A DNA stretch of 64,000 nucleotides from an uncultured Bacillota bacterium (GTDB taxonomy: Bacteria > Bacillota_I > Bacilli_A > RF39 > UBA660): assembly GCA_905205665.1 (NCBI GenBank), contig CAJLEF010000001.1:15120-79119 (forward strand). Direction: 5' to 3'. A program made the translations under genes and the position numbers. Positions 21,891 to 27,258 of this stretch are shown here, piece after piece. The notes beneath the pieces were generated by a model. It saw only the letters and a list, made by a program, of their open reading frames with translations, was not told the origin of the DNA and ran no database searches. Position 1 is the stretch's first letter; the number at the start of each line of letters is the position of its first letter.

Positions 21891-22058
21891 ATGAATTTAA
21901 AAAAAAGTGATAAAATCAAATCTAGAAGAAATAGTTTAGAAGAAAGAAGTGAAAATATTATTGAGAATGCCAGACTTTCTAAGGGGATTTCTCAAAGAGA
22001 ACTTGCTAAATTATTGGGAATAAGTGGAAGTATTTTAAATGGCCTTTTGATGAATTAG
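21891..22058 (+). CDS. Short XRE-type helix-turn-helix ORF, possibly truncated or frameshifted
   Basis: 55-aa ORF below the track cutoff, containing LSKGISQRELAKLLGISGSIL. The recognition-helix region ends abruptly. A second frame continues (WPFDELEDVEHKYDYAKLSKDI) to 22106, just before the methylase RBS. Confidence 0.35.
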   Translation: MNLKKSDKIKSRRNSLEERSENIIENARLSKGISQRELAKLLGISGSILNGLLMN

Positions 22059-22119: not shown

Positions 22120-22974
22120 ATGATAAAAGGAAAGCCGTTTGTAAAATGGGCTGGTGGAAAAAGACAAATAATAGATAAATTAAAGCAATATGTTCCATAT
22201 GAGTTTAATACGTATTATGAACCATTTATAGGTGGAGGAGCATTATTGTTTGAACTTTCACCTAAAAAAGCCGTTATTAATGATTATAACAAAGAACTTA
22301 TGAATGTATATGAATGTATTAAAGATGAAAAAAAATTCGAAGCAATGTGTAGAGAATTAAATCATCATGAAATTGAACATTCAGAAAAATACTATTATGA
22401 AGTTAGAAATATTGATAGAGATAAAAAGAAGTTTAATAAGTTAGCAGATTACAAAAGAGCAGCTCGTACTATTTATTTAAATAAAGCTTGTTTTAACGGA
22501 TTATATAGAGTTAATAGTAAGAATGAATTTAATGTACCATTTGGTAAGAAAACTAAAGTAAATACTTACGAAGGACAAAATTTAGGTATTATATGTGGTT
22601 ATTTAAATTATAACGATATTAAGTTATTGTCAGTTGATTTTGAAGAAGCAATAAAGGATGCAAAAAAAGGAGATTTTATTTATTTTGATCCACCTTACGA
22701 TTCTGATACATCTACATTTAATAGTTATACTGAAGATGGTTTTGGAAAAGAAGAACAAAAAAGACTTGCTAAAGTATTTAAAGAATTGTCAGAAAGAGGT
22801 TGTTATGTAATGCTTTCTAATCACAATACAACTTTAATAAATGATTTATATAAAGATTTTCATATACATGTAATTGAGGCTAAAAGAAACATAAATGCTA
22901 ATGGAAAGAAAAGGGGAAAAGTAGAAGAGGTTATTATAACAAACTTTGAAAATGAAAAAAGTTTTGATAAATAG
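22120..22974 (+). CDS. dpnM: Dam-family N6-adenine DNA methyltransferase (GATC), DpnM-like
   Basis: FVKWAGGKRQ, YYEPFIGGGALLF, CFNGLYRVNSKNEFNVPFG, FIYFDPPY and VMLSN align closely along the whole length with my recollection of pneumococcal DpnM. Confidence 0.85.
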   Translation: MIKGKPFVKWAGGKRQIIDKLKQYVPYEFNTYYEPFIGGGALLFELSPKKAVINDYNKELMNVYECIKDEKKFEAMCRELNHHEIEHSEKYYYEVRNIDRDKKKFNKLADYKRAARTIYLNKACFNGLYRVNSKNEFNVPFGKKTKVNTYEGQNLGIICGYLNYNDIKLLSVDFEEAIKDAKKGDFIYFDPPYDSDTSTFNSYTEDGFGKEEQKRLAKVFKELSERGCYVMLSNHNTTLINDLYKDFHIHVIEAKRNINANGKKRGKVEEVIITNFENEKSFDK

Positions 22975-22990: not shown

Positions 22991-23758
22991 ATGTCTAAGA
23001 AACCATATTATGAAACAGATGGTTTTAAATTGATAAAAGGAGATTCATTTAAAGAATTAAAAAAGATTGAACCTAAATCAATAGACATGATTTTTGCAGA
23101 CCCTCCTTATTTTTTATCTGGAGATGGTATAAGTAGTAGTGCAGGTAAAATGGTAAGTGTAAAAAAAGGTGAGTGGGATGAGAAAATAGATATTGATAAA
23201 AAACATAAATTTAATCGAAAATGGATTAAGTTGTGCTACAATCTTTTAAAAGATGAAGGAACAATATGGATTAGTGGAACAATGCATAATATTTACTCAA
23301 TAGGTATGGCATTGGAACAAGAAGGCTTTAAAATAATAAATAATATAACTTGGAAAAAATTAAATCCACCACCGAATATAAGCTGTCGTGCATTTGTTCA
23401 CTCAACAGAAACAATTTTATGGGCAAAAAAAGATATTAAAAAGGCAAAACATAAATTTAATTATTCCTTGATGAAAGAGTTAAATGATAATAAGCAAATG
23501 AAAGATGTTTGGGAGTCATCATTAACTAAACCTAGTGAGAAAAAGCAAGGAAAACATCCCACTCAAAAACCTATTGCCATATTAGAAAGAATAATATTGG
23601 CATCTACAGATGAAGGAGATTTAATTTTAGATCCATTTAATGGTTCTGGTACAACTGGTATTGTAGCGAATAAATTAAATAGAAAATATATAGGAATAGA
23701 ACAAGAAAAAGAATATCTTGATTTAACGATTAGAAGAAAGGAAGAAAATGATGAATAG
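22991..23758 (+). CDS. dpnA: Second N6-adenine DNA methyltransferase, DpnA-like (beta class)
   Basis: The catalytic FADPPYF lies near the N-terminus and the SAM-binding LDPFNGSGTTG near the C-terminus. Second gene of a DpnII-type cassette. Confidence 0.8.
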   Translation: MSKKPYYETDGFKLIKGDSFKELKKIEPKSIDMIFADPPYFLSGDGISSSAGKMVSVKKGEWDEKIDIDKKHKFNRKWIKLCYNLLKDEGTIWISGTMHNIYSIGMALEQEGFKIINNITWKKLNPPPNISCRAFVHSTETILWAKKDIKKAKHKFNYSLMKELNDNKQMKDVWESSLTKPSEKKQGKHPTQKPIAILERIILASTDEGDLILDPFNGSGTTGIVANKLNRKYIGIEQEKEYLDLTIRRKEENDE

Positions 23759-24608
23759 AAATTTTAATGATTGGTTAAGTAAATTTAAAGCAAGTATTTC
23801 AAATTATAGTTATTATGTTGATTTTAACAAGATATATGGAAATGTAGACAAAATAAAAATTGAACTTAATATTTTAAATTCTTTAATTGGCAGTCAAAAT
23901 ATAGAAGAAGAATTTAGAAATATTATTTTTAAATATCCTGAAACATTGGAGTGTATTCCAGTTTTATTGGCAGTTAGATCAAATGAAATTTTTGTTAAAG
24001 ATGAATTTGATGAATATTTATTCAAATTTAATAAAATGGTTTATTCAATTGATGATTATGTAAAATTCATGAAAGAAACTGGGTTATTTGATTTATTAGA
24101 AAATCATTTGATAAATAATTTATATGATTATGTTTTAGGTGTTGAAGTAGGATTGGATTCAAATGGTAGAAAAAATCGTGGTGGACATTTAATGGAAGAT
24201 TTAGTAGAAAGTTATATTGTAAAGGCTGGATATGAAAAGAATGTTAATTATTTTAAAGAAATGTATTTAAGTGACATTGAAAAAAGATGGGGATTAGATT
24301 TATCTGCGATGTCTGGTGATAATACTTCTACAAAAAGATTTGATTTTGTTATTAAAACTGATAATCAGGTATATGTTATAGAAACTAATTTTTATGCTTC
24401 AGGTGGTTCGAAATTAAATGAAACAGCAAGAAGTTATAAAATGTTAGCAGAAGAATCAAAAAAAGTTGGTGGAGTAACATTTATATGGTTCACAGATGGA
24501 AAAGGTTGGAATAGTGCAAGAAAGAATCTTGAGGAAACATTTAATGAATTAGATACTTTATATTCAATAAATGATTTGGAAAATGGTGTGTTAAATAATT
24601 TGGAGTGA
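23748..24608 (+). CDS. dpnB: Type II restriction endonuclease, DpnII/MboI family (GATC)
   Basis: NFNDWLS..., LNSLIGSQNIEEEF, GVEVGLDSNGRKNRGG, KRFDFVIK and NFYASGGSKLNETARSYKMLAEE match my recollection of DpnII almost block for block. Confidence 0.82.
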   Translation: MMNRNFNDWLSKFKASISNYSYYVDFNKIYGNVDKIKIELNILNSLIGSQNIEEEFRNIIFKYPETLECIPVLLAVRSNEIFVKDEFDEYLFKFNKMVYSIDDYVKFMKETGLFDLLENHLINNLYDYVLGVEVGLDSNGRKNRGGHLMEDLVESYIVKAGYEKNVNYFKEMYLSDIEKRWGLDLSAMSGDNTSTKRFDFVIKTDNQVYVIETNFYASGGSKLNETARSYKMLAEESKKVGGVTFIWFTDGKGWNSARKNLEETFNELDTLYSINDLENGVLNNLE

Positions 24609-24614
24609 TAAGCA

Positions 24615-26372
24615 GTGAATAATAGAATAATTAATAGTTATGTAGAAAATTTTTGCGGACAAAACGATTTTGATTCAAATAAATTTTTGTTATTTTCTAC
24701 ATATCAAATTTGTAAAAAACATAATTTAGATGAAAATATGTTAATTGATTGTGTTGTAGAAGGTGGAGGAGATGGTGGATTAGACTCTATTGTTGCATTA
24801 GTAGATAAAAAATATATATATTCTTTAGATGAATTTAATGAGTATGCTGAACAAATTAATGAAAACTCAAGAATAGATTTATACTTTATACAAGCAAAAG
24901 AAACAAATGGCATAAAAGAAACAGCATTTATGAAAATTAAAGATGTATTTGAAAAGTTGTTAGTTTCCAACAGTATAACAAAAGAATTAAGAATACAATA
25001 TAATCAAGTGTTAATAGAAAAATTCGAGTTAATAAATGAAATAATTATTAAATCATCTCCTAAAACAAATAATATATATATTAATGTTGCATATGCATAT
25101 ACAGGAAATTTAGATAAAGATAGTATTTCAATAGGAACTAAAAATCAAATTGATTCTATAAAAAAACTAGTTAGCGATACAACATATATAAATGAAGCAA
25201 ATATATCCGTTGATATTTTTGATAGTAATAAATTAATTAACATAGCTAATAAAAGCATACAAAAAAATTATATAATAAAATATAAAACGATTTTTAAAAT
25301 GAATTATAGATCAGATAGTGAAAATGGTTTTGTTATGAATATGTCTATAAAGGATTATTATAATTTAATAACACAAGATAATGAAATTATCGATGTATTA
25401 TTTGAAGGTAATATTCGCGATTTTGAAGGTCAAACAGTTGAGGTGAATAAAAATATAAAAAACACACTTGAAGAAGTTTATGATGCAGATTTTTGGTGGC
25501 TAAATAACGGCATAACTATGATAGTTGATTCGTATACTCCATTGCCAAATGATAGTGCGAAGGTTGTAAATCCTATAATAGTTAATGGACTTCAAACTTC
25601 ATATACAATATTTAATTATTTTAAAGAAAATATTGATAAGCTAGAAAATGAAGACAGAAACATATTACTTAAAATAGTTAATACTGATAGCATAAATATC
25701 TCTGATATGATTATATCATCAACGAATAGGCAAAATGCTGTTAAACCAGCACAACTAAAAGCTACAGATCCGATACAAAAAGACATAGAACAATTATTGT
25801 TGAAAAATGGTATATATTATGAAAGAAGAAAAAATTATTATAAAAACAGAGGAATTGATAAACATAAAATAGTGACATTAGAAAACTTAGCTCAATATTT
25901 AGAATCAATTTATTATGGTAATTGCAGTGGAGCACGTAATAATCCAACTACATTATTAAAAAGTGAAAAACTTTATAACAAATTATTTAATAATAGTATA
26001 AATCCTAATATATATACTATAACATCTGAAGTTGCTCTAAAAACATTAGAATGTTTAAGAAAAATCAAAAAAAATAATGATGATATTTTTAACAAAAAAC
26101 ATTCTGTTTCATTAGATATATTTAAATTTTATATTATGAGAATGATTGTATTATGTTTATGTGATAACAACATAAGTGAAAACTACTTAGAAATAGATTT
26201 AGAAAAAATAGATTATGATTTAACAGTAAATATTATTAATAAATTAGAATCTATAGTATCAGATATAAAAGATGATAACGATAATATCATTAATATTTCT
26301 AAATCAAAAGAATTAGATAATAAAATTAATTCAGAAGATTTGTCTGAAATATGCTTAAAAGTAACTACTTAA
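24615..26372 (+). CDS. AIPR-family abortive-infection/phage-resistance protein
   Basis: GTG start 6 nt after the endonuclease stop. N-terminal nuclease-like GGGDGGLDSIV...LYFIQAKE. Central FWWLNNGITMIV...IVNGLQTS is typical of the AIPR C-terminal domain. Confidence 0.72.
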   Translation: MNNRIINSYVENFCGQNDFDSNKFLLFSTYQICKKHNLDENMLIDCVVEGGGDGGLDSIVALVDKKYIYSLDEFNEYAEQINENSRIDLYFIQAKETNGIKETAFMKIKDVFEKLLVSNSITKELRIQYNQVLIEKFELINEIIIKSSPKTNNIYINVAYAYTGNLDKDSISIGTKNQIDSIKKLVSDTTYINEANISVDIFDSNKLINIANKSIQKNYIIKYKTIFKMNYRSDSENGFVMNMSIKDYYNLITQDNEIIDVLFEGNIRDFEGQTVEVNKNIKNTLEEVYDADFWWLNNGITMIVDSYTPLPNDSAKVVNPIIVNGLQTSYTIFNYFKENIDKLENEDRNILLKIVNTDSINISDMIISSTNRQNAVKPAQLKATDPIQKDIEQLLLKNGIYYERRKNYYKNRGIDKHKIVTLENLAQYLESIYYGNCSGARNNPTTLLKSEKLYNKLFNNSINPNIYTITSEVALKTLECLRKIKKNNDDIFNKKHSVSLDIFKFYIMRMIVLCLCDNNISENYLEIDLEKIDYDLTVNIINKLESIVSDIKDDNDNIINISKSKELDNKINSEDLSEICLKVTT

Positions 26373-26432
26373 TAACATATATGTATATAATGTCATAATG
26401 TCATTAGTTAAAAAATATTAGGAGGTTTGGAT

Positions 26433-27101
26433 ATGAAAACGAGAAGTCAAATTATAATTGATTTAATTAATAATAAAATAAATATTACTCAAGCTATGGA
26501 TACTTTAAAAATATTATTAAATGATATAGACAATCCAGAAATTAAAAATTGGTTGCTAAAAGAAATTGACGGTTATAATCAAGATGATGATATTCCAAAA
26601 TATAGAATTGTTCCAGCAACTATCACTGGAGAATATCTTGCAAGTTATGGAAGGATTCATGCAAAAAAACACCCAATACCTATCGATCCACAATATATAG
26701 CTGATTGGAATTCAGTAAAAATTTTTGCTGGAATAAATGAAATATACCAATTTTCATTAGCAGAACAAAAAGAAGACAGTCATCACTTATCAATATCATT
26801 ACATCCAGTTTTAGTCAATCAAATAGCAATGATCGATGGCGAAGTGTTAGAAGCACATCAAGATTTATCAATTTATGCTTATACTAATGTAATAGGAAAA
26901 TTAAAAGAAATAATACTTGATATTTTATTAAAATTAGAAAAAGAATATGGAAATTTAGATAGCTATTATATTGAATTTGAGAATGATGAAAAAGAAAAGC
27001 AAACAATAAATTATATTATTAGCATAATAGACAATTCAATTAAATTTGGAGATAAGAATACTATAAAAAATTCTAATATTGGTGATGAAAATGAAAATTA
27101 A
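26433..27101 (+). CDS. AbiTii-domain-like protein
   Basis: ATG 26433 lies 7 nt after GGAGG. The N-terminal pattern ...LKILLNDIDNPEIKNWLLKEIDGYNQDDDIPKYRIV resembles the ...W...ELNGY....PxYR signature I recall for AbiTii-domain proteins. Confidence 0.5.
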   Translation: MKTRSQIIIDLINNKINITQAMDTLKILLNDIDNPEIKNWLLKEIDGYNQDDDIPKYRIVPATITGEYLASYGRIHAKKHPIPIDPQYIADWNSVKIFAGINEIYQFSLAEQKEDSHHLSISLHPVLVNQIAMIDGEVLEAHQDLSIYAYTNVIGKLKEIILDILLKLEKEYGNLDSYYIEFENDEKEKQTINYIISIIDNSIKFGDKNTIKNSNIGDENEN

Positions 27102-27258
27102 AATTGGAAAGAAAAATAAATTTAATAATGTAAATATGGGTAATAACAATATAATTAACGAAGATAAAAACAATAAATCAAATATTATCATAGATATAAT
27201 TGTCGGAATAATAGTTGCAGTTATTGGAGCTATAATTATAAAATTATTAAAAATATAA
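27085..27258 (+). CDS. Unannotated 57-aa tail-anchored membrane peptide
   Basis: ATG 27085 overlaps the last 17 nt of the preceding gene in another frame. MKMKIKIGKKNKFNNVNMGNNNIINEDKNNKSNIIIDIIVGIIVAVIGAIIIKLLKI has a basic/Asn-rich head and one C-terminal TM. It falls below the 60-aa cutoff of the ORF track. Confidence 0.35.
   Translation: MKMKIKIGKKNKFNNVNMGNNNIINEDKNNKSNIIIDIIVGIIVAVIGAIIIKLLKI

Follow-up and report, generated by a model that had tools for sequence, protein, structure and literature searches.

The window analysed here is a stretch of 64,000 nucleotides (nt) of an uncultured Bacillota bacterium (contig CAJLEF010000001.1), and our subject within it is a putative defence island in which the gene of an AbiTii-domain protein is overlapped by the gene of a small membrane peptide. 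Seven open reading frames (ORFs) follow one another on the same strand, namely an apparent helix-turn-helix (HTH) remnant, a D12 methylase, an N6_N4 methylase, a DpnII endonuclease, an AIPR protein, the AbiTii protein and the small ORF (Table 1). A minus-strand transglutaminase-like gene borders the island on one side and an SDR/rpsT pair on the other. The G+C content is about 27% across the whole window and drops to 0.23 over 25-27 kb. Four nearly identical metagenome contigs from this species show an unchanged gene arrangement, and a locus of Clostridium sp. CAG:433 (L006) matches the window at 99% over the island stretch.

The membership of the 222-residue protein in the AbiTii family, proposed in a preliminary description of this DNA, is borne out by Pfam PF18864 (95.7 bits against a cut-off of 27.6, residues 8-192) and by the PADLOC AbiTii model (2.7e-26). 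Seven residues are invariant across 35 AbiTii sequences (W40, E44, G47, Y48, P55, Y57 and R58) and all are kept in the window protein; E44 is the conserved Glu of the family described by Anantharaman et al. (PMC3710099). The protein stops 19 residues past the domain and PF18864 is its sole Pfam match, so that it carries no C-terminal HEPN domain of the c2405 or Ymh type. An AlphaFold2 model from a 41-sequence alignment (mean predicted local distance difference test, pLDDT, 79.9; predicted template modelling score, pTM, 0.77) is confident over residues 1-203, which form an alpha+beta domain, and leaves the tail of residues 204-222 disordered (pLDDT <50). Foldseek found no structural relative of this model in the PDB and BFVD, with nothing below E = 0.1 and TM scores of at most 0.24, in agreement with a 2026 review that gives neither a structural hit nor an effector for AbiTii (PMC13064643).

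The ORF that overlaps the end of the AbiTii gene had been described as a tail-anchored peptide of 57 residues starting at 27085. Its existence and its anchor stand, while its start is better placed at ATG 27091, giving 55 residues, because L001 and L002 share the same 11-nt overlap (ATGAAAATTAA) and likewise have a Shine-Dalgarno (SD) sequence within the end of the AbiTii reading frame: the GGTGATGAAAATG arrangement with GGTGAT recurs unchanged in L001, and L002 has GGAG in its place. A profile built from 16 peptides of other genomes ranks the window ORF first among 697 six-frame segments (E = 1e-8); the second-ranked segment is the AbiTii ORF itself, reached through its tail motif (E = 6e-4). 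The profile match and the predicted helix indicate that the small ORF is a genuine gene and did not arise by chance.

AlphaFold2 places a helix at residues 27-54 of the peptide (pLDDT 88-95), and the peptide is therefore predicted to be tail-anchored; residues 1-26 are disordered (pLDDT ~50). The small residues G39, A43, G46 and A47 of the helix follow a G-x3-A-x2-G spacing, and the helices of relatives show GxxxGxxxG, as in GIAVGLIVG of L001 and GIIVGLILG of L012. The peptide family comprises 388 clusters at 90% identity and 237 at 50%, its members are all unnamed, and no family in Pfam, NCBIfam or PADLOC matched it. Curated holin and Fst models gave no match to the window peptide and sub-threshold matches to its relatives (Phage_holin_3_3, 13.5 bits against 28.4; Fst_toxin, 14.3 against 36). 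At L054 (5657-5856) the peptide gene is broken by a frameshift in a run of A, and read-through restores the conserved KHP-helix-FSFW tail. The break is due to a sequencing error, or else the gene is phase-variable or decaying.

The pairing of AbiTii with a small membrane protein recurs well beyond the window. A species-dereplicated genome scan gave 51 AbiTii loci, which were analysed by script together with the metagenome loci. A total of 31 distinct AbiTii proteins carry a C-terminal tail motif described below. The flank is available for 30 of these (L027 is cut by a contig end), and in 30/30 an adjacent gene on the same strand encodes the motif and one transmembrane helix; the partner at L026 was rescued by eye and that at L054 is the frameshifted gene just mentioned. 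By comparison, none of 21 loci with a motif-less AbiTii has a motif-plus-helix partner, most of these being ~290-residue Bacteroidota forms with a fused C-terminal extension. In the reverse direction, three peptide homologues (from the Bacillus cereus group, Paenibacillus and a gut mobile element) were looked up, and PF18864 adjoins them in 9/9 places. The first AbiTii homologues (42-44% identity) are each followed by an overlapping ORF of 56-57 residues and very similar sequence. The closest relatives (45-48% identity) have the overlapping peptide gene and no adjoining AIPR, with an integrase upstream where sequence exists, and a homologue of 32% identity has a small gene upstream instead. 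A scan of viral contigs returned one locus only (L074), also with the pair.

In 10 loci the partner gene overlaps the AbiTii gene from the downstream side; in the others, about two thirds, it lies upstream. It takes three forms. The window's class comprises downstream proteins of 52-66 residues, always in the +1 frame. The second form, of 58-85 residues, lies upstream (with one downstream member, at L010) and usually ends in a conserved KHP-helix-FSFWxxIxxWIEGxF tail. The third, of 158-183 residues, lies upstream and has an extra N-terminal domain. No class matched PADLOC or Pfam. The neighbours of the pairs include type I and type IIG restriction-modification (R-M) systems, Abi_2, Schlafen-like proteins, integrases and Mob genes. 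Thus, by comparison of loci, AbiTii and the peptide form a widespread two-gene module whose second gene is unannotated. The preliminary description had suggested that the overlapping ORF is a partner of AbiTii in a sensor and membrane-peptide arrangement and had proposed a survey of gene neighbourhoods; the succession of an AbiTii gene and a small transmembrane ORF does recur in this survey, and the partnership is supported by the co-conservation (30/30 versus 0/21).

Several loci extend or vary this surrounding. In the Bacillus cereus group (L059, 2144-5210) a distance of 1.2 kb, occupied by two small genes on the reverse strand, separates the pair from a prophage holin-amidase lysis cassette upstream of it, which is roughly the usual position of a phage defence moron. 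At L071 (4777-7070), L073 (1088-3384) and L002 (6410-7228) one or two additional genes (459 and 289 residues, or 272 residues) come after the peptide gene. The 289-residue protein, which follows the peptide gene in the window's closest relatives, has a weak AbiEii-like match in PADLOC (E = 4e-4). The window has none of these 459-, 289- and 272-residue genes.

The two proteins of the pair share a motif of 17 residues, located in the tail of AbiTii and at the N terminus of the peptide. The consensus positions are I/V1, I3, G4, D/N5, N7, K8, I9, K10, S12 and I14, and the same consensus is present in both proteins of 29 unique pairs. Both copies lie in disordered regions outside the globular domain in the AlphaFold2 monomers. 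Motif identity within a pair is 8.91 of 17, compared with 7.70 +/- 0.27 for shuffled partners (p = 5e-5), and the co-variation remains significant when the downstream class of the window is taken by itself (p = 0.001). Where residues are identical, codon identity is equal within and between pairs (0.47 and 0.46), and the motif likeness is therefore held at the protein level and not by DNA homogenisation. On the same values, gene conversion or a recent tandem duplication was ruled out as the origin of the similarity. A programmed frameshift that fuses AbiTii to the peptide was likewise rejected as a general mechanism, since two thirds of the loci have the peptide gene upstream.

Other arrangements of the motif were observed. 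P0104 and P0110 carry two tandem copies before the helix. The Bacteroidota AbiTii proteins (L036-L043, L046-L052, L055; P0128-P0209) are ~290-310 residues long and have no separate peptide gene; in these the AbiTii domain is followed by a motif-like N/G-rich stretch (NTGDGNVVNTGDNN), a helical linker and a hydrophobic or amphipathic C-terminus. A third gene occurs immediately upstream in those AbiTii loci that are nearest to the class of the window. At L007 (4616-4987) and L008 (4611-4979) it encodes a 122-residue protein whose globular domain is of another kind and whose end carries the IGDNN motif, and L001 (5611-5799) has a truncated 62-residue version of it. In split systems each half keeps one copy of the motif, as expected if the motif re-joins the halves. 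The window has no third motif-bearing gene, and AIPR sits at that position.

In some proteins the two halves are a single chain. P0355 (253 residues) combines PF18864 (4.8e-26), the motif and the helix, and in L024 (4995-5732) a transmembrane helix is fused to AbiTii. The motif and helix are likewise joined to at least four other globular N-terminal domains, for example in P0239, P0245, P0292 and P0336. Unrelated N-terminal domains without a Pfam match precede the same unit in P0239, P0245, P0241, P0292, P0336, P0348 and P0343. Because AbiTii and several unrelated domains are fused to the same unit, the architectures suggest that the motif plus helix is a general effector cassette.

The fusions also bear on another possibility, in which the peptide would be a membrane anchor only. 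The motif would then form a small beta-sheet constitutively and tether AbiTii, together with a second motif-bearing protein in some genomes, to the inner face of the membrane; AbiTii itself would act there, for instance where DNA is injected, and no killing role would fall to the helix. The fused P0355 and L024 do resemble ordinary tail-anchored proteins, the same unit serves several different soluble domains, and the window peptide has almost nothing past its helix. The helix and its flanks are nevertheless conserved beyond hydrophobicity, with KHP before it, FSFWxxIxxWIEG after it and the Gly/Ala spacing within. In addition, AbiTii lacks a recognisable enzymatic or effector domain and is elsewhere the N-terminal partner of effectors, of HEPN (PMC3710099) and, on one plasmid, of a TIR gene, and a gene adjoining an AbiTii homologue is toxic on its own in E. 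coli (PMC3985639). We therefore consider a mere anchor unlikely.

The gene in question, annotated as encoding a TIR-domain protein, is on a Lysinibacillus capsici plasmid (NZ_CP106864.1, 104424-104933; H1/H16). It coincides with or adjoins an AbiTii-like N-terminal region and may be another AbiTii effector pairing. A further variation occurs in Vagococcus (L034, 4998-6195) and on an Enterococcus faecium plasmid (L058, 2501-3698). Their Lactobacillales AbiTii of ~207 residues has no tail motif and is followed by an overlapping gene whose product of ~193 residues has a transmembrane helix at its N terminus and belongs to no known family; this product on this evidence is a different membrane partner of the same putative sensor.

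Based on these observations, we propose that the window encodes an AbiT-like abortive-infection pair in which the shared motif couples an AbiTii sensor to a single-helix membrane effector, with AIPR as a separate unit; we assign this reading a probability of about 0.6. In the proposed mechanism AbiTii would sense infection, and its tail motif would pair or stack as beta-strands with the identical motif of the peptide. Upon infection, clustered AbiTii would gather the peptide helices, whose Gly/Ala spacing is zipper-like, the membrane would be permeabilised and the infected cell would die by abortive infection. In published descriptions AbiTii precedes effector domains at the N-terminal end of the chain (PMC3710099), and phages that escape lactococcal AbiT carry their mutations in the capsid protein and in other genes (PMC13064643). 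In E. coli, Dy et al. found the Coprococcus catus 'AbiTi' to be toxic and its AbiTii unable to neutralise it (PMC3985639), a behaviour that would fit an effector rather than a toxin-antitoxin pair if the gene is of the present type.

A toxin-antitoxin pair was considered in its own right: the peptide would be a membrane toxin of the holin or Fst type, the AbiTii tail would cap its N-terminal motif, and phage would remove or titrate AbiTii. The overlapping, translationally coupled genes would suit such a pair, the matching motifs would permit sequestration, and the helices of relatives have the sub-threshold similarity to holin and Fst toxins given above. Yet the gene order varies, with the peptide gene upstream in about two thirds of the loci, and single-chain fusions of AbiTii and helix are hard to reconcile with an antitoxin that must dissociate. 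As the C. catus AbiTii also failed to neutralise its toxic neighbour (PMC3985639), we judge a toxin-antitoxin pair to be quite improbable.

Several points weigh against the proposed coupling of sensor and effector. The defence role of the pair is drawn from the domain name and the neighbouring genes, and, as the AbiTii fold has no known relative, the role as a sensor follows from the logic of domain architecture only. Within the two upstream-partner classes taken alone, the co-variation of the motifs is not significant (p = 0.12 and 0.45). Finally, the motif has no match to any curated family, and a Pfam search at E <= 10 gave no RHIM match to it.

The comparison with lactococcal AbiT, a two-component abortive-infection system of AbiTi and AbiTii (Bouchard 2002, as cited in PMC13064643), shows both likenesses and differences. 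Shared features are a PF18864 protein of ~215-225 residues without an effector domain, a small adjacent gene, a bicistronic organisation and a location in defence islands or mobile elements. In contrast, AbiTi is a soluble protein of 127 residues with an endoribonuclease-like predicted fold (PMC13064643), compared with the 55-residue motif-plus-helix peptide here, and the shared terminal motif is not known from AbiT. No ORF of the AbiTi type (127 residues, endoribonuclease-like) adjoins the window AbiTii, AbiTi being compared by its description, and the original lactococcal AbiT was not found in PLSDB. Thus, the link to the two-gene requirement of lactococcal AbiT made in the preliminary description holds by analogy only, as the partner is not AbiTi-like. 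Relative to known AbiT, what is new by sequence is a putative AbiT-like two-gene abortive-infection (Abi) system with an unannotated membrane partner and a duplicated coupling motif. The AbiTii-HEPN fusions (c2405, Ymh; Anantharaman et al. 2013, PMC3710099) likewise place AbiTii N-terminal to a presumed death effector in an R-M neighbourhood; here, however, the putative effector is a membrane helix instead of an RNase and usually a separate chain, which the duplicated motif would join to AbiTii.

A more speculative step is that contact between the motifs is a self-propagating cross-beta (amyloid-like) assembly, as in Bab/Agp of E. coli or fungal NWD2/HET-S. Bab/Agp is an Abi system that signals via a motif common to the products of adjacent genes (bioRxiv 10.1101/2024.11.07.622273). 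Together with the BASS/FASS pairs (also bioRxiv 10.1101/2020.01.06.895854) it resembles the present pair in its adjacent genes, in a terminal motif of ~20 residues rich in N, G, S and aliphatics, in the combination of a sensor and a small membrane-targeting executioner (proposed here) and in its location in defence islands. As in those systems, a motif is common to the termini of adjacent gene products (29 unique pairs, p = 5e-5) and lies in unstructured regions (pLDDT <50 for AbiTii 204-222 and ~50 for peptide 1-26). The motif positions are reversed here, at the C-terminus of the sensor and the N-terminus of the effector, and a bare transmembrane helix replaces the Bell/HeLo domain in hosts that are unicellular Bacillota. 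We found no NLR/STAND or other oligomerising sensor with a Bell/HeLo effector, as AbiTii has no NTPase domain and the helix no Pfam family.

The phi-x-phi-G-x-x-N-x-phi core of the shared motif recalls RHIM. With the RHIM of RIPK1, RIPK3, ZBP1 and TRIF, fungal PP and bacterial BASS3 it shares a phi-x-phi-G core, after which come a conserved Asn and an aliphatic residue, and a position in a disordered region; those motifs are used in cell-death signalling. Unlike RHIM, the defining Gln of (V/I)-Q-(V/I/L/C)-G (PMC9444067) occurs in only 3/46 motif copies, the window having IKFG and IKIG at the tetrad. A search of the motif profile against all PDB sequences returned no RHIM or RIPK, only the beta-roll repeat of UspA1 (E = 0.26). 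RHIM membership is ruled out by the rarity of the Gln and the lack of a Pfam or PDB match, and the likeness is a resemblance only. Because of the weak UspA1 match and a sub-threshold hexapeptide-repeat match in one relative, the motif would fit a single beta-solenoid rung that would be unable to fold alone. On analogy with the known systems, the motif might represent a new family of amyloid-like signalling sequences in bacteria, here in unicellular Bacillota of gut and soil, through which sensors, namely AbiTii and at least four other globular domains, would template the same motif on a minimal single-helix executioner; we regard this as a tentative and rather doubtful extension of the proposed coupling.

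The preliminary description had grouped AIPR, AbiTii and the peptide as a three-part module, having correctly noted that three same-strand genes follow DpnII and that AIPR begins exactly 6 nt past the endonuclease stop (TGA 24606-24608, GTG 24615). The identity of the AIPR protein is likewise secure. It matches PF10592 with 123.9 bits (cut-off 25, residues 263-553), its residues 2-573 align to positions 2-532 of 537 of the PADLOC AbiU model, the full-length AbiUi architecture, and its translation holds the strings GGGDGGLDS, FIQAKE, WWLNNGITMIV and VNGLQTS quoted before. A GGAG lies 9 nt upstream of its GTG. The protein is 31.5% identical to a Lactococcus cremoris plasmid homologue of the same length class. 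It is a full-length member of the AbiU (AbiUi)/AIPR family, and it differs from AbiU in being followed by AbiTii instead of a HEPN-type AbiUii and in being appended directly to a DpnII cassette. Plasmid homologues (31-36% identity) are solitary, the L. cremoris one being followed by a 341-residue gene of AbiUii size.

The grouping itself does not hold, as the trio is not co-conserved, an outcome that the preliminary description had named as refuting it. Its three genes are closely spaced on one strand, no convincing terminator was seen between them, and the order is stable in the four contigs of the species. However, a tblastn search with the window AIPR against 67 AbiTii/peptide loci (545 kb) found it in the same species only and in none of the 66 others. 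The gap of 60 nt between the AIPR and AbiTii genes contains an SD sequence and a promoter-like site. In two metagenome relatives at 78% and 74% identity (L079 and L080), AIPR keeps the methylase-methylase-DpnII-AIPR order and the same tight junction. L079 stops 200 nt past AIPR, so that only L080 can be judged for a downstream AbiTii; there ~970 nt follow AIPR, with a LysM cell-wall gene and no AbiTii. In addition, AbiU is now viewed as a single-gene system, and lactococcal AbiUi alone is reported to confer phage resistance (PMC13064643). We thus find a joint system of the three genes highly improbable. On these gene orders, AIPR is a defence gene in its own right, associated with the DpnII cassette and outside the AbiTii module. 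The Pfam description says that AIPR proteins often occur in R-M operons. The absence of AIPR from AbiTii loci, the DpnII-AIPR order kept in relatives and the single-gene nature of AbiU lead us to parse the island as two separate defence units side by side, [HTH-M-M-R-AIPR] followed by [AbiTii-peptide].

Strain comparison gave two further observations on the first unit. At L085 (3998-6191; also L086-L089), AIPR is 98-100% identical to the window up to residue 53 (window 24615-24773) and is then cut by an inserted element encoding a 523-residue large serine recombinase, which suggests that the 5' part of AIPR is used as an integration site. In a near-identical strain (L075, 454-975), a 173-residue HTH protein occupies the place of the window's 55-residue HTH ORF (21891-22058), which looks like a remnant or a replaced controller gene.

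Table 1 Features of the island, with positions in the window and supporting evidence
Feature	Position	Strand	Evidence
Apparent HTH remnant, 55 aa, in the controller-protein position before the R-M cassette	21891..22058	+	Pfam HTH_3 1.1e-5, only model positions 1-27 of 55
Dam-type (D12 class) N6-adenine DNA methyltransferase, DpnII cassette	22120..22974	+	PF02086 2.4e-62; PADLOC MTase_II 1.8e-96
Second methyltransferase (N6_N4_Mtase), DpnII cassette	22991..23758	+	PF01555 8.6e-65; PADLOC MTase_II 2.9e-102
DpnII-family restriction endonuclease	23748..24608	+	PF04556 6.3e-110; PADLOC REase_II 4.9e-100
AIPR / AbiU-type protein, 585 aa, GTG start	24615..26372	+	PF10592 1.4e-35; PADLOC AbiU 3.1e-130
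AGGAGG Shine-Dalgarno, 7 nt before AbiTii ATG 26433	26420..26425	+	read from sequence
AbiTii-domain protein, 222 aa, alpha+beta domain (1-203) and disordered C-terminal tail	26433..27101	+	PF18864 5.4e-27
AbiTii C-terminal tail motif IKFGDKNTIKNSNIGDENEN, consensus [IV]xIG[DN]xNKIKxSxI	27039..27098	+	found in 31 distinct AbiTii homologues
GGTGAT Shine-Dalgarno inside the AbiTii gene end, 4 nt before ATG 27091 (translational coupling)	27081..27086	+	read from sequence
Small protein, 55 aa, MKIKIGKKNKFNNVNMGNNN...IIIDIIVGIIVAVIGAIIIKLLKI, partner and putative effector, 11-nt overlap with AbiTii	27091..27258	+	profile E = 1e-8
Peptide N-terminal motif IKIGKKNKFNNVNMGNN, same consensus as the AbiTii tail	27097..27147	+	alignment; disordered, pLDDT ~50
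Single transmembrane helix I32-L53 of the peptide	27184..27249	+	Kyte-Doolittle 17-residue window maximum 3.08; AlphaFold2

AbiTii is a named Abi component, and our findings offer most non-lactococcal, non-HEPN AbiTii proteins of Bacillota a concrete, testable partner. This partner belongs to an unannotated family of membrane proteins of 55-75 residues, with 237 clusters at 50% identity and no Pfam, NCBIfam or PADLOC model, so that present defence finders would report 'AbiTii' alone and miss the second gene. The parse of the island is corrected as well, AIPR going with the DpnII cassette and not with AbiTii. The duplicated terminal motif is in addition proposed as a physical coupling device. 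If cross-beta templating by this motif were true, the pair would be a very small, genetically tractable model of amyloid-controlled cell death and the simplest known counterpart of NWD2/HET-S, RIPK-RHIM/MLKL and Bab/Agp, and amyloid signalling would extend beyond NLR-type receptors and multicellular bacteria.

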